Source of the DNA: an uncultured Pseudomonadales bacterium
GTDB lineage: Bacteria; Patescibacteriota; Microgenomatia; UBA1400; MFAQ01
Length of the DNA: 64,000 nucleotides
Direction of reading: 5' to 3'
Assembly: GCA_964513845.1 (NCBI GenBank)
Contig: CAZENT010000001.1
Coordinates: 42,450-106,449 of the forward strand
Shown: piece after piece, positions 1 through 43,351 of the stretch
Layout of the letters: each line of letters starts with the position of its first letter
Position numbering within the stretch: position 1 is the stretch's first letter
The notes under the pieces: generated by a model
Databases searched by the model: none
What the model was told of the DNA's origin: nothing
What the model saw: the letters and a program-made list of their open reading frames with translations, nothing else
Program-made: the position numbers and the translations under genes

Positions 1-1886
1 GAAGCGTCGCCTTCTGATCTAATAACAATCTTGTCACCAGGCAAAAGCTTAGTTGTTTCTTTGGGTGACCCTTTCAATACACCCCTTGGAGGGATATTTA
101 CTCTCTTAGCAAGAGGAACCACAGTTCCATCACTTTTCTCAACAAAGACAGTCAATTTTGCCCAACCTCGCCTAAATTTTTCTCCTTTTTTGTATTCTAT
201 ACCATGTAAGTCCTCAGTATCACCAATTGAAACTTCAATTCTTTCAAAAGAAATTTCTTCATCAATATCAATACTAAGATCTCCTGTGGAATTACCACTC
301 TTAGACAGAGTAAAACCTTCACCATCGGTCGTTACGGGAAAATCTAACTTGGATACATCAGGGTGATTAAGAGGAATGCTCATATCATAAAAACCCATTC
401 TGGGATGAATTCCACCACCGTATGTAGGAGATAAAATATTATTAGCTAAGTCGACGAATTCAGTATTAGGAGTAAACTTCATTTCGAGTTTTGTAGATAG
501 TTCCTTTGGAAAAGTTTCAATCTCTAATCCTTTAAAAGAGACAACCCCCTTCTCCCCCTTTCCTGCACCCACGATTAGGACTCTCTTCGCTCTAATTTCT
601 CCATGACTCTCTACCCAATCATGTAAGATTTCTGCCTCTGGGTTACTAAATGGTCTATGCTCAGCAAACTTTGAACTACCAGAATCAACCCATCGATCTG
701 TTGTTTCATCAAAGACGAATATATTTGTGTAGGCTCCTTCTTCATCCCATCCTTCTGAATCAAGAGAATCTCGGTATTTTTCAGCTTTTCTATGGTGAAG
801 AGTAACTGCGTCAAGTATCCGCGCGCTAATATGATCAGGAAGTTCGATTAATACAGCATCTCCATTTTTTAGATCAATCTCGGAAGCTCCGCGATCTAAA
901 TCAAATTTTACCGAATTCATAGTGCCGTCAGAAGGCGCCTCGATAGTCCTTACTATTCTAGGACTTCCTATAGATTCCAATCTAAGATCACTTATTGATA
1001 AATCAGCACCCTCAATATGTCTAACCGGAGCTGATTCCCTATAAATTAAGGGTTTGATCTTTGTTCTTATAAGATCTAACAGACCAGGTCTCTTCATTTC
1101 ATCTCTTCTTTCAACCACAGCATCTGCCTCCACAACGTCTTCAACTAAGCCAAATCTTTTAGCTATGAAGTTCTTCCTTCCAATCAGCGAATCTTTTAGC
1201 TCCTGCCTTAAATCACTGTCAGTCAAGCCAGACGAGTCGACTATTTGAATAATCCTCTCATCGGTTAGTTTCTCTACAAGCATTTTAGCTTGAGATTTCA
1301 TTTCATCGTCTGAAACATTTTCAAAGACCATACCGGCAGGGTACATTGGATTACGCATACTATCCAGTTCAATAATGCTATCAGAAGGAAAATCTTTTTT
1401 TTCACCCCTAGCGCGGAATATTAATGATCCACCGTTATCAACTCTCCAGCAGTGGCCATCTGGAGATTTCATTATGTTATCAAAGGCGCTTCCACCAACA
1501 TCCCTATTACCCAAAAAAGCATCAACTACAAAACCAGACAATACTTCTTGCTCATTTGACATTTCCGAAGGGCTTAATGTTTTTAATCCTTTAATTTCTT
1601 TTGAGACAAAAGCTACTTTTCCATCGACTTCGGTAACAACAGTCTCCGGTACATGTAAACCAACTTCACGGTAAATTTCATTTGCAATTGCTTCAATTCT
1701 CGATCTGTCAGTGTTCGGATAAAATTTTACATAAAACCTTTCATCTGATTCATTCGTAAACCATCCACCATCATTAGAACCCTCCCTGCCAGAAACCTGA
1801 GTGAGTAGTCCTGGTTCCAAAACCTTAGGTTTTTGCTCATTCCGTGCTCCATTATCAGCTGAAGCATCATAATAAATATTTTCCAT
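1..1886 (-). CDS. Large hypothetical protein, N-terminal 628 codons (gene runs off the window start); possible atypical kinase-like domain
   Basis: Manual translation of the minus strand from ATG at 1886 (MENIYYDASADNGARNEQKPKV...) stays open to position 1. It is absent from the ORF track because no stop lies in the window. Motifs FLGNRDVGGSAFDNIM and VDNGGSLIF loosely resemble kinase catalytic/DFG-like loops. Plus-strand ORFs 31-366, 1054-1248 and 1375-1674 are antisense to it. Confidence 0.6.
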   Translation of the reverse strand, partial: MENIYYDASADNGARNEQKPKVLEPGLLTQVSGREGSNDGGWFTNESDERFYVKFYPNTDRSRIEAIANEIYREVGLHVPETVVTEVDGKVAFVSKEIKGLKTLSPSEMSNEQEVLSGFVVDAFLGNRDVGGSAFDNIMKSPDGHCWRVDNGGSLIFRARGEKKDFPSDSIIELDSMRNPMYPAGMVFENVSDDEMKSQAKMLVEKLTDERIIQIVDSSGLTDSDLRQELKDSLIGRKNFIAKRFGLVEDVVEADAVVERRDEMKRPGLLDLIRTKIKPLIYRESAPVRHIEGADLSISDLRLESIGSPRIVRTIEAPSDGTMNSVKFDLDRGASEIDLKNGDAVLIELPDHISARILDAVTLHHRKAEKYRDSLDSEGWDEEGAYTNIFVFDETTDRWVDSGSSKFAEHRPFSNPEAEILHDWVESHGEIRAKRVLIVGAGKGEKGVVSFKGLEIETFPKELSTKLEMKFTPNTEFVDLANNILSPTYGGGIHPRMGFYDMSIPLNHPDVSKLDFPVTTDGEGFTLSKSGNSTGDLSIDIDEEISFERIEVSIGDTEDLHGIEYKKGEKFRRGWAKLTVFVEKSDGTVVPLAKRVNIPPRGVLKGSPKETTKLLPGDKIVIRSEGDA

Positions 1887-2064: not shown

Positions 2065-2370
2065 TTACTGTTTGGACTCCAATAAATTCTCTGCCAACGG
2101 TTCGATTATTTTTTCTAAGAGTTCTTGGTCTGAAAAAGTGGAAGCCAATGATTGGAGAATTGCGGTTCTTTGTTCTTCGTTGGTTTCTTCCCAAGGATTA
2201 AATTTTAGATGCTTTTCCAGTTCTGTAATTGAACTAACCGCCTTATGTTTTAGATCTACGTTTACGCATTTTACATCAGCGGCTCTCTCCTTTCCGATGT
2301 AGAGTAGGTCTTCTTTGTTAACCACGAGCACTTCATCTCCTAATTTTGCTACCGGGTATAGTTCGTTCAT
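2065..2370 (-). CDS. Small (~101 aa) conserved partner protein, paralog of 4969..5274; candidate immunity/antidote-like partner
   Basis: ORF-track 2065..2382 with likely true ATG at 2370 (MNELYPVAKLGDEVLVVNK...). It lies 1 nt after the stop of the upstream 373-aa gene and is ~65% identical to the 4969..5274 product. Confidence 0.6.
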   Translation of the reverse strand: MNELYPVAKLGDEVLVVNKEDLLYIGKERAADVKCVNVDLKHKAVSSITELEKHLKFNPWEETNEEQRTAILQSLASTFSDQELLEKIIEPLAENLLESKQ

Positions 2371-2371
2371 T

Positions 2372-3493
2372 TTAATATTCAATTAATTTAATTAACGATT
2401 CGGGATGCGCTTCTTTAAATTTATTATATATTTTTTTAACCTCTTCTATTTCATCGTCATCGAGGTCATTATTTTTAGATATGTAAATGGCCTCTATATC
2501 CTCGAATTTAAGTTGTCCATGAAATTGGGCTTCGGTGTATGAAGCACCCCATGTCACTTTGCTTGATTTTTCTAGACTGGCAAGTATATTTTCAACATAC
2601 CCACTAATACGAAAGCTTGTGAAGTGTGGCTTTGAGGCTGGGGTTGGTGGCCATTCATCTTTGGGGCTAAGACTGTCTTGGAAAGCGATCGTTGTTTTTT
2701 GTAATGCGCGCTCCCTCTTTATCTTAACTGTAATTTTTCCGTATGCGTCTACTGAGTTTGGTGGGGGGATTTCACCATCGTAATTTATAACCCCATATTC
2801 ATTATTTGAAAAATAGCCGTATATTGGTCTGTTTTCTTTGTTCTCATCAACAACCTCATCGGGAATACCTTCTCCGCGATGTCCTGAAGAATAATCAACA
2901 CCCTTACGCCCATTAAATGCAAACATCAGCACCTCAGCTTGAGCTCTGTAACTCTGATTTAAACAACCATCACTATGATTTGTTTCAAATTGACTTTTGA
3001 ATCGACCATCTTCGTTCAACACTTTGTCGAGTACGAATACGCTTGTCGCTCTGAAAAAATTAGATTCACCTACAATCGCCTCAATCTTTTTTTGCAATTC
3101 TACTTTAAACTCTTCTACTGTCATTCTGGCATCCATAGCCGCTTCCTCATATAATTCAAGATGTTCCTTTTCTGCATTGATAATGTTTCTCCGCATTCTG
3201 TCCTTTATCTCTGGATTTGCTTCTAGGTTTATAGCTTCCCAGTCTTGAAAATATTTTTCAGTTACAGCGGAAGGAAATTCAGTTTTTTCGTGAATTGTTT
3301 CTTCTGAAACCAGTGATGTTTCGGGATCAGAAACTCTTGAAATCGCGGCACCCCCGAATCTAGATCGGAGTTTGGCGAGAATATCAGAACTCACATCCTT
3401 TATGGTTTTCTTTTTTGTTTCAAATGTTGGTGACATTTCCATGTATGCTTCTGCCATGCACTTTATTATTGCGGTTATATATATAAGAGTCAA
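2372..3493 (-). CDS. Hypothetical protein (373 aa) with conserved ~290-aa C-terminal domain shared with 3612..4964
   Basis: Long ORF. Its C-terminal region aligns by eye with the 450-aa paralog on shared motifs NFFRAT, GRFKSQFET, RPIYGYFS, YG.ITVK.KR.RAL.K, PPTPA.KPHFTS, YTEAQFHG and IKLIEY. Confidence 0.7.
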   Translation of the reverse strand: MTLIYITAIIKCMAEAYMEMSPTFETKKKTIKDVSSDILAKLRSRFGGAAISRVSDPETSLVSEETIHEKTEFPSAVTEKYFQDWEAINLEANPEIKDRMRRNIINAEKEHLELYEEAAMDARMTVEEFKVELQKKIEAIVGESNFFRATSVFVLDKVLNEDGRFKSQFETNHSDGCLNQSYRAQAEVLMFAFNGRKGVDYSSGHRGEGIPDEVVDENKENRPIYGYFSNNEYGVINYDGEIPPPNSVDAYGKITVKIKRERALQKTTIAFQDSLSPKDEWPPTPASKPHFTSFRISGYVENILASLEKSSKVTWGASYTEAQFHGQLKFEDIEAIYISKNNDLDDDEIEEVKKIYNKFKEAHPESLIKLIEY

Positions 3494-3611
3494 TAATCTG
3501 CATGATGGTGGAGTAGAAGATGCAATTAAGTAATTGATGAGAAAAAGATAAGAAATCTATTATCACTGATGTAAATTCCTCAATATTTTTAAAATAAATT
3601 ATATTGCTATA

Positions 3612-4964
3612 ATGACTTTTGTGACAGAAATATCAACGGAAGAACCGCCATTGTTTGAACTAGAAAAGGGAATGCCTTTGAAAGATTTTTCTGAAATAAT
3701 TGATAAAATCAAGCCAAAATTGGGACTTGAGAGTTCAACCAAATCTTCCAAACCCATATACCCTGAAATAAGGTTTGACGAAGAAGGATCTATGATAGAA
3801 CCGCCGTTGCTTGAACCAGAAAAAAGAACACGATTGAAAAAATTTTCTGATATTATCGAAAAAATCAAGCCAAAATTGAGACTTGAGAGTTCGGCTTCAC
3901 CTTTCGAAGAATCCATATACCCTGAAATAAAGTTTGACGAAGAAGGATCTATGATAGAACCGCCATTGTTTGAACTAGAAAAAAGAATACTATTGAAAGG
4001 ATTTTCTGCAATTTTAGAAAAAATCAAATCAAAATTGAGACTTGAAAGTTCACCTAAATCTGAGACAACTAGAAAATATTTCGAAGATTGGGATGCTCTA
4101 CACTTAGATGCTAACCCGGAAATAAAGGAAACAATGAGAAAAAATATTCTTATTGCTGAAAAACAACACCAAAAAATCTACGAACAAGCTGCTCGTGAGG
4201 CAGGCGTTAGCATTGAAGTATTTAAGAAAAAATTACAAGAAAAAGTTGAAAGGGCGGTTGAGAACTCTAATTTCTTTAGAGCAACAAAAATTAGTGTATT
4301 AGATAAAGTTCTCAATGGAGATGGTCGATTCAAAAGTCAATTTGAAACACATGATAGTGGTGGCTTTTTGAATCCATCTTTTAGAGCATTGGCAGAAATG
4401 AAAATGTTTGGTTTCAATATGCCACCAGGCGGTTTCAAATTTTCCACTGCGGGTTATCATGGGAGCAAAATTCCAGATAGCATTGTGCACGATAACTGTG
4501 AAAGAAGACCAATTTATGGATATTTTTCCGATAATGAACATGGAGAAATCAATGAACGTGGAACAAACCCCCCATCAAATAATTTAGTTCAATATGGCGA
4601 GATAACTGTAAAATTAAAAAGGGATCGGGCTTTAGAAAAAGCAACATTGAGTTTTCAAGACAGCCTTGATTATAAAGACTGTCCTCCAACACCAGCGATA
4701 AAACCACATTTTACGAGCCTAGAAATTGGTGATGCTTATTCTGATGTAATACTAGATAGAGTTGAAAATCCAGGTACAACGAAATGGGGGTCAGTATACA
4801 CCGAAGCTCAGTTTCATGGGGGGCTAACATTAGACGATATTGATGTAATTTATGTTTCTACCGGTAACAGACTATATGACGACCAGATCATAGAGGTCCG
4901 CGAGATATATAATAGATTTATTCAATCGCATCCCGATTCAGATATTAAATTAATTGAATATTAA
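3612..4964 (+). CDS. Hypothetical protein (450 aa): three N-terminal ~53-aa tandem repeats plus the conserved C-terminal domain shared with 2372..3493
   Basis: ATG at 3612 follows a TATAAT-like box at 3604-3609. Repeats EPPLFELEK...IYPEI(R/K)FDEEGSMI occur three times. The C-terminal domain is homologous to the 373-aa paralog. Confidence 0.7.
   Translation: MTFVTEISTEEPPLFELEKGMPLKDFSEIIDKIKPKLGLESSTKSSKPIYPEIRFDEEGSMIEPPLLEPEKRTRLKKFSDIIEKIKPKLRLESSASPFEESIYPEIKFDEEGSMIEPPLFELEKRILLKGFSAILEKIKSKLRLESSPKSETTRKYFEDWDALHLDANPEIKETMRKNILIAEKQHQKIYEQAAREAGVSIEVFKKKLQEKVERAVENSNFFRATKISVLDKVLNGDGRFKSQFETHDSGGFLNPSFRALAEMKMFGFNMPPGGFKFSTAGYHGSKIPDSIVHDNCERRPIYGYFSDNEHGEINERGTNPPSNNLVQYGEITVKLKRDRALEKATLSFQDSLDYKDCPPTPAIKPHFTSLEIGDAYSDVILDRVENPGTTKWGSVYTEAQFHGGLTLDDIDVIYVSTGNRLYDDQIIEVREIYNRFIQSHPDSDIKLIEY
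3642..4064 (+). repeat. Three tandem ~159-nt (53-codon) coding repeats within the 3612..4964 gene
   Basis: Near-identical DNA units begin gaaccgcc(a/g)ttg(t/c)ttgaac at 3642, 3801 and 3960. The third unit is truncated. The antisense ORF 3599..4027 is an artefact of this repeat. Confidence 0.85.
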
Positions 4965-4968
4965 AAAA

Positions 4969-5274
4969 ATGAACGAACTGTATCCAGTAGCAAAATTAGG
5001 AGATGAAGTGCTTGTGATAAACAAAGATGACATACCACTCATCGGAAAAGAGAACGCGGAAGACGTTAAATGTGTTAGTGTTGATTTAAAACATAAAAGA
5101 ATTGACCCTTTGGCGGCATTGGAAAATCATCTAAAATTTAATCCTTGGGAAGAAACAAGCGAGGAAGAAAGAAGCGCTATTCTTCAGTCTCTGGCAACGA
5201 TATTCCCTAATCAGGATATCTTAGAAAAAATTATTAAGCCCCTCGTCGGAAGCTTAGTTGATTCAAAAAAGTAA
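4969..5274 (+). CDS. Small (~101 aa) conserved partner protein, paralog of 2065..2370
   Basis: ORF-track 4954..5274 starts at TTG. The likely true ATG is at 4969 (MNELYPVAKLGDEVLVINK...), 4 nt after the stop of the 450-aa gene. Confidence 0.6.
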   Translation: MNELYPVAKLGDEVLVINKDDIPLIGKENAEDVKCVSVDLKHKRIDPLAALENHLKFNPWEETSEEERSAILQSLATIFPNQDILEKIIKPLVGSLVDSKK

Positions 5275-5339: not shown

Positions 5340-5816
5340 CTAAAATAGACCTTTTTTCTTGAGTACTTGGATATCTTCTTGAAGATTGCTGAGTCTTTTT
5401 TCAATATCTTTTAAGGCATTGACGACATCGTCCTCTTCTGCGTCGTCCTCGACATAATCATCAGAAATGCCTTTGACGTTTAACTCAAGACTGTCCACGT
5501 CTTCTTGGATGTCACCAATATCCTCACCCAAGTCCTCAACGTCTTCTTGGATATTATCAATGTCTTTTTCTACTCCAGCAAGACTCTTTGTGGTGCGATT
5601 GACGGTCATCTGAATAAAGATGGAGAGATAAATGGCTTCAAGTGATACGGCGGTAGTAAGGATTAGAAGGACTTTATCGAGAGCCATCCCAAAAATTATC
5701 AAGATAAAAATACCCATAAATAGAGCTGTGTGAACCAAGATTGATTGTGGGGTACCAATCCAAAAAGTCAGTTTCTGCGACGCACGATCGAGGTTTGTAA
5801 TCTTTTTTTTGGGCAT
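5340..5816 (-). CDS. Small membrane protein with two TM helices and an acidic C-terminal coiled coil (DUF1003-like)
   Basis: ORF 5340..5864, with internal ATG at 5816 (MPKKKITNLD...). It has a hydrophobic hairpin followed by a D/E-rich repeat region. Confidence 0.5.
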   Translation of the reverse strand: MPKKKITNLDRASQKLTFWIGTPQSILVHTALFMGIFILIIFGMALDKVLLILTTAVSLEAIYLSIFIQMTVNRTTKSLAGVEKDIDNIQEDVEDLGEDIGDIQEDVDSLELNVKGISDDYVEDDAEEDDVVNALKDIEKRLSNLQEDIQVLKKKGLF

Positions 5817-5886
5817 CGTGTTATTTTCCCACAAATTGATGATAAAATACTGCCCATATCGCACACTAAAAAGAATTGGAGGAAGA

Positions 5887-6285
5887 ATGAGACCTGTATT
5901 GCAAGCTATTTTGATACCAACACGTGATTTTCAATTGAAAACTGATATTATGACTGGCTATAAAGATATCTTAATCTGGGAAGGTCATCGAGATTATCAT
6001 GTCGGAACAGTATTATTTTGTGATTGGGAAGAACCGTGGGTGGTAAGGGCATATATTTATGAAGTTCAACTCAAGATTCTGTCTCAAGTTACCCAAGAGG
6101 AATTGGAGCTGAATGATATTAACTCTATTGAAGAGCTGCTTAAGAAAATGCAAGAGCGCTACGGAGACATTACCATGGATTCACCTGTAACAGTTATTCG
6201 ATGGAAAAATGTTTGTGGTGCTTTGACCAGGAATGAAGAAATATATCATTATTCCAAGGTACACAAGACCAAACTCAATTTTTAG
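5887..6285 (+). CDS. Hypothetical protein (132 aa)
   Basis: ATG at 5887 is preceded by a GGAGG Shine-Dalgarno at 5878-5882. An intrinsic terminator follows immediately. Confidence 0.5.
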   Translation: MRPVLQAILIPTRDFQLKTDIMTGYKDILIWEGHRDYHVGTVLFCDWEEPWVVRAYIYEVQLKILSQVTQEELELNDINSIEELLKKMQERYGDITMDSPVTVIRWKNVCGALTRNEEIYHYSKVHKTKLNF

Positions 6286-6323: not shown

Positions 6324-6854
6324 TTAAAAGATGTCTTCGGGAGGGAGGAATTCTTCACCATTGGCAGCTTGAGGTTTGAACTCGGTTTTGAGCCAGAGAA
6401 CATAGTCGCAACCAGTGGCTTTCTTTTCTTCTCTATCCCAGCCAGAAGTCGAACATTTTTTCATTTTTTTACCGGCCGCGGTGGTGTAGAGAACTAGAGG
6501 TTCGCCACATTTGGGACATTTTTCGTCAAGCTTTTCGGTGGTTCCGTTGATCCATTCAACGTAGTCGCAACCTGTGGCCTTTTTGGCTTCTTTATCCCAA
6601 CCACCGGCACTACATTTCTTCATTTTTTTACCAAAACGTGTCACCTGAAGAACTAAAGGTTCGCCACATTTGGGACATTTTTCATCAAGAGTTTGTGGCT
6701 CAACCTCTAACCATTTGACATAGTCACAGCCATCGGTTTTGTGAGTTTCGGTGTTCCAGACACCCGTTGAACAGCGTCTAAGCTTTCGGCCGGTTGGGGT
6801 TTCGGTAATTTCTGATAGTGGTGCGCCACATTTGGGACATTTTTCTTCTTCCAT
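6324..6854 (-). CDS. Stand-alone protein of three tandem C4 zinc-ribbon repeats resembling topoisomerase-I C-terminal zinc ribbons
   Basis: Three ~57-aa repeats, each CPKCG(A/E)PL...GKKMKKCS..GW.....GCDYV.W. Confidence 0.65.
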   Translation of the reverse strand: MEEEKCPKCGAPLSEITETPTGRKLRRCSTGVWNTETHKTDGCDYVKWLEVEPQTLDEKCPKCGEPLVLQVTRFGKKMKKCSAGGWDKEAKKATGCDYVEWINGTTEKLDEKCPKCGEPLVLYTTAAGKKMKKCSTSGWDREEKKATGCDYVLWLKTEFKPQAANGEEFLPPEDIF

Positions 6855-6896
6855 GCTTATTAGATTAACACATCTTGGACAAGAAGACGAGATGAA

Positions 6897-7214
6897 TTAG
6901 GAAAGGTCTTTGAGAATTTGCTTTACAATTTTGTTGGCGGCTGTTCGGATATCCTCTTCGATGTCTGGACCGACATTCTTTTTGAGGTAAGCAATAAGCT
7001 CCGGATCGTAAGGGCGTTCGTGAACTTGGGATAGAAAAGTACCGTGATTCTGAGGATTAAGCCTTTCCAAGATATGTGCCACAATCCCCTGGTATAAAAT
7101 ATCGTCTATCAATTGAAGAGCTTTTCCTTTTTGATTTTCAGGTTCTGCCTTTTGATTTATCAACTCAACAATCTGGGTTTTGATGATTAAATGGTCGAAA
7201 AAAAGTGGTGCCAT
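6897..7214 (-). CDS. Hypothetical protein (105 aa)
   Basis: ORF in an operon-like position between the RlpA-like gene and the zinc-ribbon gene. No recognisable motif. Confidence 0.4.
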   Translation of the reverse strand: MAPLFFDHLIIKTQIVELINQKAEPENQKGKALQLIDDILYQGIVAHILERLNPQNHGTFLSQVHERPYDPELIAYLKKNVGPDIEEDIRTAANKIVKQILKDLS

Positions 7215-8093: not shown

Positions 8094-9521
8094 TTAGGCG
8101 AACACAGATCTTAATCGTTTTAGAGATTCTTCTTTCCCTAAGATTACGATACAGTCGAAAAGTGGAGGGGTGACGGTGCGTCCGGAAATGGCAACGCGCA
8201 AAGACATAAAAGCTTCGCGAGGCATTAGACCAGAGTCTTTTTGAATGGCAGCAAATTCCTCATGAAGATTTTCAGAAGTAAAATTGTTGGTATTTTCCAG
8301 TAAAGAAATCGCTTTTTTGAACCACTCCTTGGTTTCTTCTTCGGAGTGGGCTGATTGATCTAGAACTAATTGTTTGTCGACTTCGGGGGTGGAGAAAAAA
8401 TATTCAGCACTAGGCGTAAAGTCTTTGAGAGTGAACATTCTCTCTTTGGCAATATCAATAATGGAGATAACTTTGGTTTTTTCCTTTTGCCAATCTTCCG
8501 GCATAAAAGACTTTAGTCTATTGAAGAGCTCCTCGGAATCAAGCTTTTTGATCCATTGGCTGTTGAGGTAATTTAATTTTTGAATATCAAAGATAGCATT
8601 TTGTCTTTGAATCTTTTTTTCATCAAAAACCTCAATCATCTGATCTAAAGTAAGAAGTTCGGAGTTGTCTTTGTAGGAAAAACCAAGGTAAAAGAGAAAG
8701 TTGTCGATCGCTTCAGGAAGATAGCCATCGGCAGCATATTCCAAGACTGATTTGGCACCATGACGTTTGGAAAGTTTGCTTTTGTCCGGTCCTAACAACA
8801 AGGGAACGTGGGCGAGTATGGGAGGTTCCCAACCAAAAGATTCATAAAGAAAAAGATGAACGGGGGTAGACATCATCCACTCGACGCCTCGAAGAACATG
8901 GCTAATTTTCATCAAATAATCGTCGACGAGGGCAGCTAAGTGATAGGTGGGGATACCATTGGTTTTCATCAAAACTTTGTCGTCGCACTCGGTGTTGGGT
9001 AAGCTAAGCTTTCCCTGAACAAGATCGTGCCAGGTGGTAAAGCCTGTTTCCGGAAGCTTGACCCGAATAATGTAAGGGGTACCGGAGTCGAGCTTGGCTT
9101 TGACTTCTTCGGCAGATAAATTGCGGCAGTGACGATCGTATTTGGCAAATTGATTTCCCTCATGAAGCTCTTTGAGCCTTTCTTCGGAGCAAAAGCAATA
9201 ATAGGCGGCGCCCATGTTTACGAGCTCGAGAGCGTATTTTTGGTATAGATCTAGACGCTCTGTTTGAACATATGGACCGTACGGACCCCCAACAACTGGA
9301 TCTTCGTCTCGTTTTAAACCCAAAAAATCGTGAATCTGGTAGATCTTTTCTACAGCTTCGGGAACCAGCCTGTCTTGATCGGTGTCTTCGATACGAAGAA
9401 TAAACTCGCCATTGTATTTTTTGGCAAGCAAATAATCAAAAAGAGCAGTTCTGGTATTGCCAATATGAGGAACCCCCGTAGGAGAGGGAGCAATTCTAGT
9501 TCTAACGTGCGTAGTTGGCAT
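8094..9521 (-). CDS. gltX: Glutamyl-tRNA synthetase
   Basis: Class I aaRS HIGH motif (PHIGN) and KMSKS motif (KLSKR). Length is typical for GluRS. Confidence 0.85.
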   Translation of the reverse strand: MPTTHVRTRIAPSPTGVPHIGNTRTALFDYLLAKKYNGEFILRIEDTDQDRLVPEAVEKIYQIHDFLGLKRDEDPVVGGPYGPYVQTERLDLYQKYALELVNMGAAYYCFCSEERLKELHEGNQFAKYDRHCRNLSAEEVKAKLDSGTPYIIRVKLPETGFTTWHDLVQGKLSLPNTECDDKVLMKTNGIPTYHLAALVDDYLMKISHVLRGVEWMMSTPVHLFLYESFGWEPPILAHVPLLLGPDKSKLSKRHGAKSVLEYAADGYLPEAIDNFLFYLGFSYKDNSELLTLDQMIEVFDEKKIQRQNAIFDIQKLNYLNSQWIKKLDSEELFNRLKSFMPEDWQKEKTKVISIIDIAKERMFTLKDFTPSAEYFFSTPEVDKQLVLDQSAHSEEETKEWFKKAISLLENTNNFTSENLHEEFAAIQKDSGLMPREAFMSLRVAISGRTVTPPLFDCIVILGKEESLKRLRSVFA

Positions 9522-42064: not shown

Positions 42065-43351
42065 TTAATCCAAGAACTTGTCGTAACTATACATGTAGAG
42101 CTGAGAGTTGATGGTTTTGAGAATTTCCAGAACTACGGAAACGACGATCAACACACTGGTTCCACCGATGGCTAGAGAAGCAATGCCGGTGAAGCCGGAC
42201 ATAATCGAGGGAAGAATGGCAACTAGCCCTAAGAAACTGGCACCAACGAGGGTAATACGACCCAAGACAAAGTTTAGATAGTTGACCGTATCGGGACCCG
42301 GCCTAATACCGGGGATAAACGATCCAGATGAGCGAAGATCTTTAGCAATTTTTTCGGGATTAAAAACGACGGCGGTGTAAAAGTAAGAGAAAGCCACAAC
42401 CAAAACAAAGTAGAGGACATTATAAAGAACTGAGCTGGGAGCGAGCCAAGTACTTAACGTGGTGGCAAAACCGGCAAGAGTAGGCTGATTAACGCCAGCC
42501 AGAACTCGACTCAGCATACTAGGAATGAGCATAAAAGAAACAGCAAAGATGATTGGGATGACACCGGCCTGATTTAAACGAAGAGGTAGATGACTGCTGG
42601 CAACCGCACTGTAGGAGGCTCCCCCGCCACGTCTGGCTGACTGGATGGGAATTTCGCGAATAGCCTCACCAACTCTGACAATGGCATAAATGGCGGCGAC
42701 GACAAAAAATAAGAAGATTAAGTAGGTAAATATCTTGGATTGATCCATGGTGGTAATGGTTTGGATGATGTTGATAGGAATACGAGTGACGATACCAACA
42801 AAAATGATAAGACTAATGCCGTTGCCTAAACCATAATCGTTTAGCTGCTCACCAAGCCAGATAAGAAGTGAGGTACCGGCGGCGAGAGTAAAGACGATGG
42901 AAGCTAGCTGTAAGGGATCGGCCGTGGTAGTGAGGCCTTGTTTTTGAAGAAGGAAAATAAGGGCAATGCCTTGTAGGAAACAAAGAGGAATGGTAAGAAG
43001 GCGGGTGTATTGATTGATCTTTTGGCGACCATAATCCCCTTCTTTTTGGAGAGCTTCGAGCTTGGGAATAACCATACCGAGCATTTGGAAAATAATGGAG
43101 GCGTTGATGTAGGGGTTTAAACCAAGAGCCATAATGGAAAAGTTTCCCAAGGTACCGCCGGAAAAAACATCGAGAAGAGAAAGAAAGGCTGAGGAATTGA
43201 ACATTTCCTTAAGAGCGGAAAGGTTGATACCCGGAGCCGGGACATGAGCAACTAGACGGAAAATGGCAATAACAACAGCAGTAAAAATCAAACGCTTGCG
43301 AAGTTCTTTGATTTTCAACAAGGCGCGCAGAGGGGCTAATAAATTATTCAT
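42065..43351 (-). CDS. secY: Preprotein translocase subunit SecY
   Basis: 428 aa, 10 TM helices, with conserved SecY motifs (GGTSVLI, RPG...YL). Confidence 0.9.
   Translation of the reverse strand: MNNLLAPLRALLKIKELRKRLIFTAVVIAIFRLVAHVPAPGINLSALKEMFNSSAFLSLLDVFSGGTLGNFSIMALGLNPYINASIIFQMLGMVIPKLEALQKEGDYGRQKINQYTRLLTIPLCFLQGIALIFLLQKQGLTTTADPLQLASIVFTLAAGTSLLIWLGEQLNDYGLGNGISLIIFVGIVTRIPINIIQTITTMDQSKIFTYLIFLFFVVAAIYAIVRVGEAIREIPIQSARRGGGASYSAVASSHLPLRLNQAGVIPIIFAVSFMLIPSMLSRVLAGVNQPTLAGFATTLSTWLAPSSVLYNVLYFVLVVAFSYFYTAVVFNPEKIAKDLRSSGSFIPGIRPGPDTVNYLNFVLGRITLVGASFLGLVAILPSIMSGFTGIASLAIGGTSVLIVVSVVLEILKTINSQLYMYSYDKFLD

Follow-up and report, generated by a model that had tools for sequence, protein, structure and literature searches.

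The window analysed here is a stretch of 64,000 nucleotides from an uncultured bacterium placed in the Patescibacteriota (GenBank assembly GCA_964513845.1, contig CAZENT010000001.1, forward-strand positions 42,450 to 106,449; all positions below count from its first letter). Close to its left end lie two gene pairs arranged head to head, each made up of a large gene followed directly by a gene for a small acidic protein. The large proteins, of 373 and 450 aa, are here called ART-A (A373) and ART-B (B450), and the small proteins partner a and partner b. Judged by their sequences and by a predicted structure, the large proteins are a divergent clade of DUF3626/SopF-type ADP-ribosyltransferases (ARTs) which occurs mostly in Patescibacteria (the candidate phyla radiation, CPR), with an apparently intact NAD+ site and a predicted transferase activity.

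Two divergent gene pairs and their paralogy

An earlier interpretation made from the letters of the DNA alone (the sequence-only reading) had described two divergent large/small gene pairs between 2065 and 5274, and the list of open reading frames (ORFs) bears this out (Table 1). On the minus strand the order is ART-A, partner a, a gap of 178 bp and a gene for a two-domain protein (K-T, see below), with ART-B and partner b divergent from these. The ATG of the partner follows the stop codon of the ART gene after 1 nt in pair A and 4 nt in pair B, matching the earlier figure of 1-4 nt, and the locus is AT-rich as had been noted: GC content is 0.41 in the right flank, drops to 0.36 across the cassette and reaches 0.25 between the divergent genes. 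For gene A, M18 is the NCBI call and M13 the alternative, and the true start is probably one of these rather than that of the maximal ORF. The intergenic region is therefore ~154-169 bp long, and not the 118 bp first proposed. A promoter scan of this region found consensus-like sites on both strands, in numbers not above shuffled expectation. No further copy of any module was found elsewhere in the window, and there is no tRNA nearby.

Table 1. Positions in the window of the two gene pairs and of the adjoining K-T gene
Feature	Position	Strand	Remark
ART-A, maximal ORF 373 aa	2372..3493	-	likely start M13 (3457) or M18 (3442)
ART-A module, roughly residues 76-373	2375-3268	-	
ART-A predicted NAD-binding residues	Y225 2819-2821; Y251 2741-2743; E321 2531-2533		residue mapping onto SopF
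Partner a, 101 aa, acidic, pI 4.7	2065..2370	-	maximal ORF 105 aa, 2065-2382
Divergent intergenic region between both cassettes, AT-rich, GC ~0.25	3458..3611		both promoters presumed here
ART-B, 450 aa, paralogous SopF-like ADP-ribosyltransferase	3612..4964	+	
ART-B module	4065-4961	+	
ART-B predicted NAD-binding residues	Y302 4515-4517; Y328 4593-4595; E398 4803-4805		
ART-B N-terminal repeat, 159-bp (53-aa) unit, 2.6 tandem copies	3641..4052	+	Tandem Repeats Finder (TRF)
Partner b, 101 aa, acidic	4969..5274	+	maximal ORF 106 aa, 4954-5274
K domain, N-terminal half of P0118, HipA-like/protein-kinase-like	963..1886	-	
T domain, C-terminal ~320 aa of P0118	1..962	-	last ~9 codons beyond window

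ART-A and ART-B share 51% identity across ~365 aligned residues (BLAST, E 3e-119), and the sequence motifs listed in the sequence-only reading are all present, in the same order, in both. The partners, counted from the conserved MNELYP methionine, are both 101 aa long with an isoelectric point (pI) of 4.7-4.9; the size and acidity given earlier thus stand, and their identity is 69% (E 4e-54) in place of the ~65% first estimated. By the Nei-Gojobori method, the non-synonymous divergence (dN) of the ART module between A and B is 0.32 and the synonymous divergence (dS) ~2 (dN/dS ~0.16); the values for the partners are 0.18 and ~2.2 (dN/dS ~0.08). A dS of about 2 indicates an old split, and the low dN/dS ratios point to purifying selection on both pairs. 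The head-to-head pairs are real and old paralogs, and both have probably been kept functional. Both copies have their nearest relative in the one cassette that a Collierbacteria genome (L005) carries.

The N-terminal regions had been called unrelated, with tandem repeats in one of them. TRF confirms the repeats (2.6 copies with a period of 159 bp, 83% matches), but residues 13-46 of A373 fit a short N-terminal helix motif that is conserved in the family (motif hidden Markov model, HMM), and residues 10-58 align by BLAST with residues 106-150 of B450, in its third repeat. The motif HMM itself gave no score on B450. As the N-terminus of A373 aligns with this repeat, the repeat looks like a triplicated N-terminal helix module, and the 53-aa units are probably multiplied copies of it. 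Both N-terminal regions are hydrophilic, and no Pfam, NCBIfam or PHROG domains were detected in them.

The DUF3626 domain of the large proteins

Searching 5.8 billion proteins yielded 61 homologs of the ART proteins, mostly from records of Patescibacteria/CPR (Collierbacteria, Saccharibacteria, Vogelbacteria, Parcubacteria). Several of these carry a precomputed match to the Pfam family DUF3626 (PF12294), and one close homolog bears the NCBI name 'DUF3626 domain-containing protein'. When 47 homologs were scanned, 41 matched DUF3626 (E<=0.01; best E 1e-9), and two distant members (L018, L020) scored 49.5 and 37.1 bits. A full-text literature search on DUF3626 returned Salmonella work only. To our knowledge no DUF3626 protein other than SopF has been characterised.

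The domain of the Salmonella effector SopF is DUF3626 (PMC6682159). SopF, an ADP-ribosyltransferase, is described as having a diphtheria-toxin-type 'I-Y-E' triad in place of H-Y-E; the residue that it modifies is Gln124 of ATP6V0C, and ARF GTPases activate it (PMC10333799). Mutagenesis has shown that Y224 and Y240, which contact nicotinamide, and E325, which contacts the N-ribose, are required for activity (PMC11937434). For the 373-aa protein the family alignment gave a confident AlphaFold2 model (predicted local distance difference test, pLDDT, 85.5; predicted template-modelling score, pTM, 0.79). When it was compared with the PDB by Foldseek, SopF came out on top (7DN8 and 7DN9; E 2.3e-7 and 4.7e-7; probability 1.00; TM 0.45-0.55), at ~15% identity in the structural alignment. 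The next matches, DarT, CopC and Tpt1, all have the ART fold. Sequence searches of the PDB found nothing with the single ART sequence or with a close-family profile, and with a broadened profile that included distant DUF3626 proteins SopF was the best, though weak, match (E 0.034). In this alignment YtEaqfHG falls on YIEAHIHG of SopF, and YGevtvk on YGKSFF. The sequence-only reading had recognised no characterised family, and had named profile searches and structure comparison as ways to look for one; for the large domain both lead to DUF3626/SopF, with DarT second in structure.

The residues required in SopF can be traced into both window proteins. The local SopF sequences SRPI-Y224-AA, SA-Y240-GKSFF and NYI-E325-AHIHG, obtained by translating published primers, have their counterparts in RPI-Y225-GY, A-Y251-GK and YT-E321-AQFHG of A373, and in Y302, Y328 and E398 of B450. 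These three positions are invariant or >90% conserved across the family. R164, K166, Q168, E170, R183, E187, D273 and H325 are also family-invariant. The H-Y-E, ART-like core that had been put forward as speculation was thus right as to the fold, the tyrosine (in RPIYGYF, equivalent to Y224) and the glutamate (in YTEAQ, equivalent to E325), but wrong as to the histidine. The His of G(Y/S)H(G/R)G..IPD, described as invariant, is common to the two paralogs only and sits in a variable, clade-specific insertion which many members lack, and it was rejected as a catalytic residue. Membership of the family is supported by the fold, the catalytic residues and the clade-level profile matches, while the window proteins themselves score below the Pfam threshold.

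On this basis, the large proteins would bind NAD+ through Y225, Y251 and E321 (ART-A numbering) and, as members of the diphtheria-toxin-like ART branch, would transfer ADP-ribose onto a macromolecular target. A different reading takes the likeness to SopF as one of fold only: the proteins would be catalytically dead scaffolds, or would carry out other NAD+-consuming chemistry, as an NADase or in DarT-like modification of nucleic acid. The low identity and TM-score to SopF speak for it, as do the rank of DarT, a DNA-modifying ART, as the next structural neighbour and the several family-invariant residues, listed above, which have no assigned function. The conservation of all three SopF activity residues in the family and in both paralogs, together with strong purifying selection, argues against a dead enzyme and is still compatible with a non-protein target. 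We consider this reading distinctly unlikely.

The DUF3626 domain is found at the C-terminus of proteins with quite different N-terminal parts (WXG100_2, Phage_min_cap2, EAD7 repeats, a HipA-like kinase, 53-aa repeats or short helices). Among the distant members, it ends a WXG100_2 protein of the type VII secretion system (T7SS) type in Microtetraspora, which is preceded by a YbaB-like gene, a phage minor-capsid protein (Phage_min_cap2, SPP1 gp7/MuF-like) in Victivallis, and a 1533-aa CPR protein with EAD7 'effector-associated' repeats (L015:1875-7177 region). Two phage proteins encoded next to the portal gene also end in DUF3626, a 'minor capsid protein' of Streptococcus phage MissE2 (L028, 1202-3407) and a 'cytoplasmic protein' of Actinomycetia phage DSL-LC01 (L029, 1245-2830). 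A Hymenobacter plasmid carries a stand-alone copy. Most distant DUF3626 genes are followed by a small ORF; such ORFs lie at L018:6770-7021, L020 ~6845-7159, L028:3096-3407 and L029:2642-2830, and in the two phages this ORF overlaps the DUF3626 gene (103 aa and 62 aa). The arrangement suggests that the phage DUF3626 proteins may be virion-packaged ARTs with partners of their own.

The cassette itself is flanked by different housekeeping genes in each genome. A pattern scan of 185,579 species genomes returned 18 loci; it used exact peptide patterns and so undercounts. This sporadic distribution gives the cassette the character of an accessory element. Three records of metagenome-assembled genomes (L008, L010 and L015) are labelled Gammaproteobacteria, Nanoarchaeota and Pseudomonadales ('HK-STAS-PATE-16'), and because their cassettes and neighbouring genes are Patescibacteria-like, these bin labels are probably unreliable.

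The 101-aa partner and its proposed role

There are 56 homologs of the partner, again mostly from CPR records, at 42-83% identity. Their core is a 12-residue block, L55-E66, LEKHLKFNPWEE, in which E56 and H58-E66 are strictly invariant in the alignment. In every CPR-type locus with enough DNA, 18 out of 18 distinct loci, the partner gene stands directly 3' of the ART gene on the same strand and with a spacing of a few nt; the neighbourhood survey in CPR genomes that the sequence-only reading had in mind thus found the pairing throughout. The predicted fold of the partner is a beta-sheet plus two helices. Pfam and NCBIfam gave no match to it, and neither the PDB nor viral structures hold a structural relative, with no likeness to known chaperones or to ARF.

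Some loci depart from the simple pair. In L015 a partner gene is found on each side of the ART gene (1875-2168 and 6869-7177), and both retain the HLKFNPWEE core. At L012:6001-6848 and L014:6043-6851 the match to the ART gene is split into two parts that lie in different reading frames, with the downstream partner gene intact; these are possibly frameshifts, that is, pseudogenes or assembly errors.

We give about even odds (a probability of roughly 0.5) to the reading that each large gene encodes an active SopF-type mono-ART and the 101-aa protein its cognate neutraliser, as part of a larger modular system of conflict type that occurs chiefly in Patescibacteria. The partner would be made from the same transcript as the enzyme and, given the spacing of the two genes, may be translationally coupled to it. 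As an immunity protein or antitoxin it would bind and neutralise the enzyme in the producing cell, and its invariant LEKHLKFNPWEE segment, which is acidic and aromatic, probably contacts the equally invariant catalytic cleft. The neutralising role is suggested by the strict order of toxin gene and then small gene, by the use of DUF3626 as a C-terminal effector domain on T7SS, phage and EAD7 carriers, and by the analogy of other ART toxins. The enzyme might act within the cell, as in toxin-antitoxin systems or abortive infection, or else on another cell, e.g. the host of an episymbiont.

Several observations weigh against this reading. Immunity proteins and antitoxins normally diverge faster than their toxins, but here the mean pairwise identity is 58% for the partner and 50.5% for the ART, and an invariant block of 12 residues is atypical of such proteins. 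The effector/immunity-like architecture proposed from the sequence is supported by the adjacency of the two genes, the variable N-termini and the C-terminal position of the domain on WXG100, phage capsid and EAD7 proteins, and fits poorly with the conservation of the partner. Divergence of ART and partner is correlated across pairs (r 0.85, Mantel p ~2e-4), which shows co-inheritance and is compatible with co-evolution without proving it, since such a correlation is expected from co-inheritance alone. At the GRFKSQFET segment the window proteins match Pfam DUF3626 with 18.4 and 16.2 bits, below the gathering cut-off of 27. No secretion or trafficking domain or signal peptide was recognisable in the window proteins in Pfam and NCBIfam scans, so that delivery to another cell is unsupported, and PADLOC reported no known defence system for ART or partner. 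A comparison with the PHROGs yielded only a weak match, to a family without assigned function.

The strong conservation of the partner is the chief difficulty of the immunity reading and keeps alive two others, in which the partner is an activator or chaperone, or a substrate (see below). In the first, the ART would depend on the partner as its activator, cofactor or chaperone, the pair forming the active holoenzyme, or the partner stabilising or escorting the enzyme. High conservation and an invariant motif are more in keeping with a functional cofactor than with an immunity protein that evolves fast, and the partner is small and acidic, as are many effector chaperones. There are precedents in the dependence of the SopF family on a protein cofactor, in SopF the ARF GTPases (PMC10333799), in a chaperone-dependent ART toxin (PMC11606950), and in CopC, a structural neighbour of the ART-A model which needs calmodulin and is reported to be activated by it (PMC9239266). 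However, an activator made together with its enzyme would leave that enzyme constitutively active in the producer, which clashes with the effector contexts of the domain unless the target is absent there. Distant DUF3626 genes have no detectable partner homolog, so the fold has no general requirement for one, and the partner does not resemble known chaperones or ARF in structure. On balance we regard an activator or chaperone as unlikely.

The small ORFs that follow distant DUF3626 genes were compared with the CPR partner (those of Victivallis, Microtetraspora, Streptococcus phage MissE2 and Actinomycetia phage), and homology was unsupported, with hhalign probabilities of 0.2-1.9%. In an hmmsearch that included 211 background ORFs the lowest E was 2, and a four-sequence alignment was uninformative; all that remains of this comparison is a post-hoc '[LV]-D-S-x(3-6)-W-x-E' resemblance. 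The small ORFs of L020 (~6845-7159, Microtetraspora) and L029 (2642-2830) resemble each other (blastp E ~0.001). They have 'VDS-x6-WE' in common, which may be compared with 'LEK-x6-WEE' of the CPR partner, a likeness that is statistically unsupported.

The K-T protein and the wider set of modules

The left-edge ORF of the window, P0118, encodes a protein of 637 aa in which an N-terminal K domain is fused to a C-terminal T domain. The sequence-only reading had seen a kinase-like ORF beside the locus, and a kinase signature is indeed present; that the protein belongs to the same system had escaped it. In seven loci (L001-L004, L006, L008 and L009, where L008 is the same contig as L004) a ~380-aa gene without a Pfam match stands directly upstream of the ART gene, and in L005 it is convergent and downstream. 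The ~380-aa proteins are homologs of T, sharing 31-33% identity with the C-terminal half of P0118 (E ~1e-40), and half of the loci are three-gene loci of T, ART and partner. As T is a separate gene beside the ART gene in related genomes, P0118 belongs to the same system.

No relative of the T domain was found in Pfam or among PDB sequences; a match to thermolysin (E 0.43) was dismissed as noise, the motif being LHDW and not HExxH. An exhaustive search gave 106 representative T clusters (P0134-P0238). T is very often fused to K, in the orders K-T, T-K and T-K-K, and other members are fused to a Zeta toxin (P0196), a calpain-type protease (P0207), a WWE domain (P0175), ankyrin repeats (P0168), PPC (P0232) or a PARP-like region (P0182), a weak match whose E of 5.6e-4 does not pass the cut-off. 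P0118 has no match in Pfam. The invariant residues of its K domain (K54, E65, D122, N127, D129, D136-N137 and D150-N151-G-G) fit a kinase core of apparently HipA-like type, and a K homolog (P0156) just reaches Pfam HipA_2, scoring 27.3 bits where the cut-off is 27. Of the 61 ART homologs, 11 have K fused to the N-terminal side of DUF3626, and K is also found in phage Mu F-type (MuF) proteins that carry an ADPrib_exo_Tox domain as well. Adjacency and fusion thus link ART, partner, T and K.

T and K would then be additional modules of the same system, combined with the ART by fusion or adjacency. The combination of T with many unrelated effector enzymes suggests, speculatively, a shared sensor or adaptor. 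A broader and more tentative proposal, doubtful as it stands, is an unrecognised modular conflict system, mostly of Patescibacteria, in which T would serve as the common sensor or adaptor for interchangeable NAD+- or ATP-using effectors (SopF-like ART, HipA-like kinase, Zeta toxin, PARP-like, calpain), and the conserved, orphan-fold 101-aa protein would control the ART through LEKHLKFNPWEE.

These fusions also bear on the reading in which the partner is the physiological substrate of the ART, or a mimic of it. ADP-ribosylation would here act as a regulatory switch, with the acceptor residue in the invariant segment and with T and the kinase as reader or second writer. The 12-residue block offers potential acceptors (H58, K60, N62, E65 and E66), members of the T family are occasionally fused to WWE (ADP-ribose-binding) and PARP-like domains, and the kinase-ART fusion in 11 homologs suggests two modifications on one pathway. 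Against a regulatory switch stand the sporadic, accessory distribution of the cassette with its varying genomic positions and the service of the DUF3626 domain as an effector elsewhere. No eraser (macrodomain or ADP-ribosylhydrolase, ARH) was seen in the neighbourhoods examined, and the PARP match is the weak one mentioned above. We see little likelihood of a substrate role.

The other genes around the locus were also inspected. Directly right of the cassette lies a gene for a predicted membrane/coiled-coil protein with DUF677/DUF948-like matches (5340-5864, minus strand), overlapped by an ORF with a weak ASCH-domain match (5809-6285, plus strand). It is followed by a 176-aa protein consisting of three topoisomerase-I-type C4 zinc ribbons without a catalytic domain (6324-6854, minus strand; Zn_ribbon_Top1, E 6e-10), and housekeeping genes, e.g. 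gltX (8094-9521), lie further right. Just past the left end of the window, on the strand opposite to P0118, there is a faint match to LAGLIDADG_3, which is homing endonuclease-like (L023:3296-4027); it may be a sign of a mobile or variable island here.

Comparison with known systems and meaning

SopF (PF12294; 7DN8/7DN9) is the closest known protein: at clade level it falls into the same Pfam family, its structures match the ART-A model best, it has an N-terminal helical region before the ART core, and it conserves the RPI-Y, Y-G and Y-x-E-A-x-x-H-G motifs with Y224, Y240 and E325. [quoted passage not shown] The window proteins are ~15% identical to it, carry a clade-specific insert, and are always paired with the 101-aa protein, which SopF lacks. 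We know of no T3SS in CPR-type bacteria.

With polymorphic toxins (T7SS WXG100/LXG and phage MuF) the pairs have in common a C-terminal enzymatic domain, variable N-termini and a small gene directly downstream, and DUF3626 itself occurs on WXG100_2 (Microtetraspora) and on phage minor capsid/MuF-like proteins, each with a small ORF after it. However, a recognisable trafficking domain is present in distant relatives only and absent from the window proteins, and the partner is highly conserved where a hypervariable protein would be typical. DarTG, ParST and CmdTAC likewise encode an ART-fold toxin with a small neutralising protein, the role that is proposed for the partner here; DarT is the second-best structural neighbour of the ART-A model, and CmdTAC is a three-gene ART system that may be compared with the T-ART-partner loci. 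In contrast to DarTG, the partner is no macrodomain by Pfam and NCBIfam, and no macrodomain gene was seen in the neighbourhoods. There is no HTH (helix-turn-helix)/Xre-type antitoxin and no SecB-like chaperone here, and the toxin gene comes first. The third component also differs from that of CmdTAC, being T, which has no Pfam or PDB sequence match, and PADLOC gave no match for ART or partner.

K resembles HipA-family kinase toxins in its kinase signature (Lys, Glu, D..N.D loop, DNGG) and through the homolog that reaches HipA_2. It differs from them in that no HipB-like antitoxin is present, that K is fused to T or ART and does not stand alone, and that P0118 is without a Pfam match. Since the pair fails defining features of polymorphic toxins, DarTG and CmdTAC, it is described better as a catalytic family already known but met here in a new lineage, together with two new partner families and a kinase association that recurs.

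SopF has been known as an effector directed at eukaryotes, and the same catalytic core is now seen in the ultra-small bacteria of the CPR, in capsid proteins of phages and in toxins of the T7SS type. From these contexts DUF3626 looks like a family of weapons or defence enzymes in general use between microbes. With the 101-aa partner and the T domain, the CPR clade adds two families that have neither a Pfam model nor a solved relative, and it shows a recurrent link of an ART to a HipA-like kinase. CPR bacteria rely on host cells and make do with very small genomes, so that any dedicated conflict or effector module is informative on their dealings with hosts and phages. If the enzyme is delivered to the bacterium that serves as host of these episymbionts, it would be among the first candidate host-directed effectors of the CPR.

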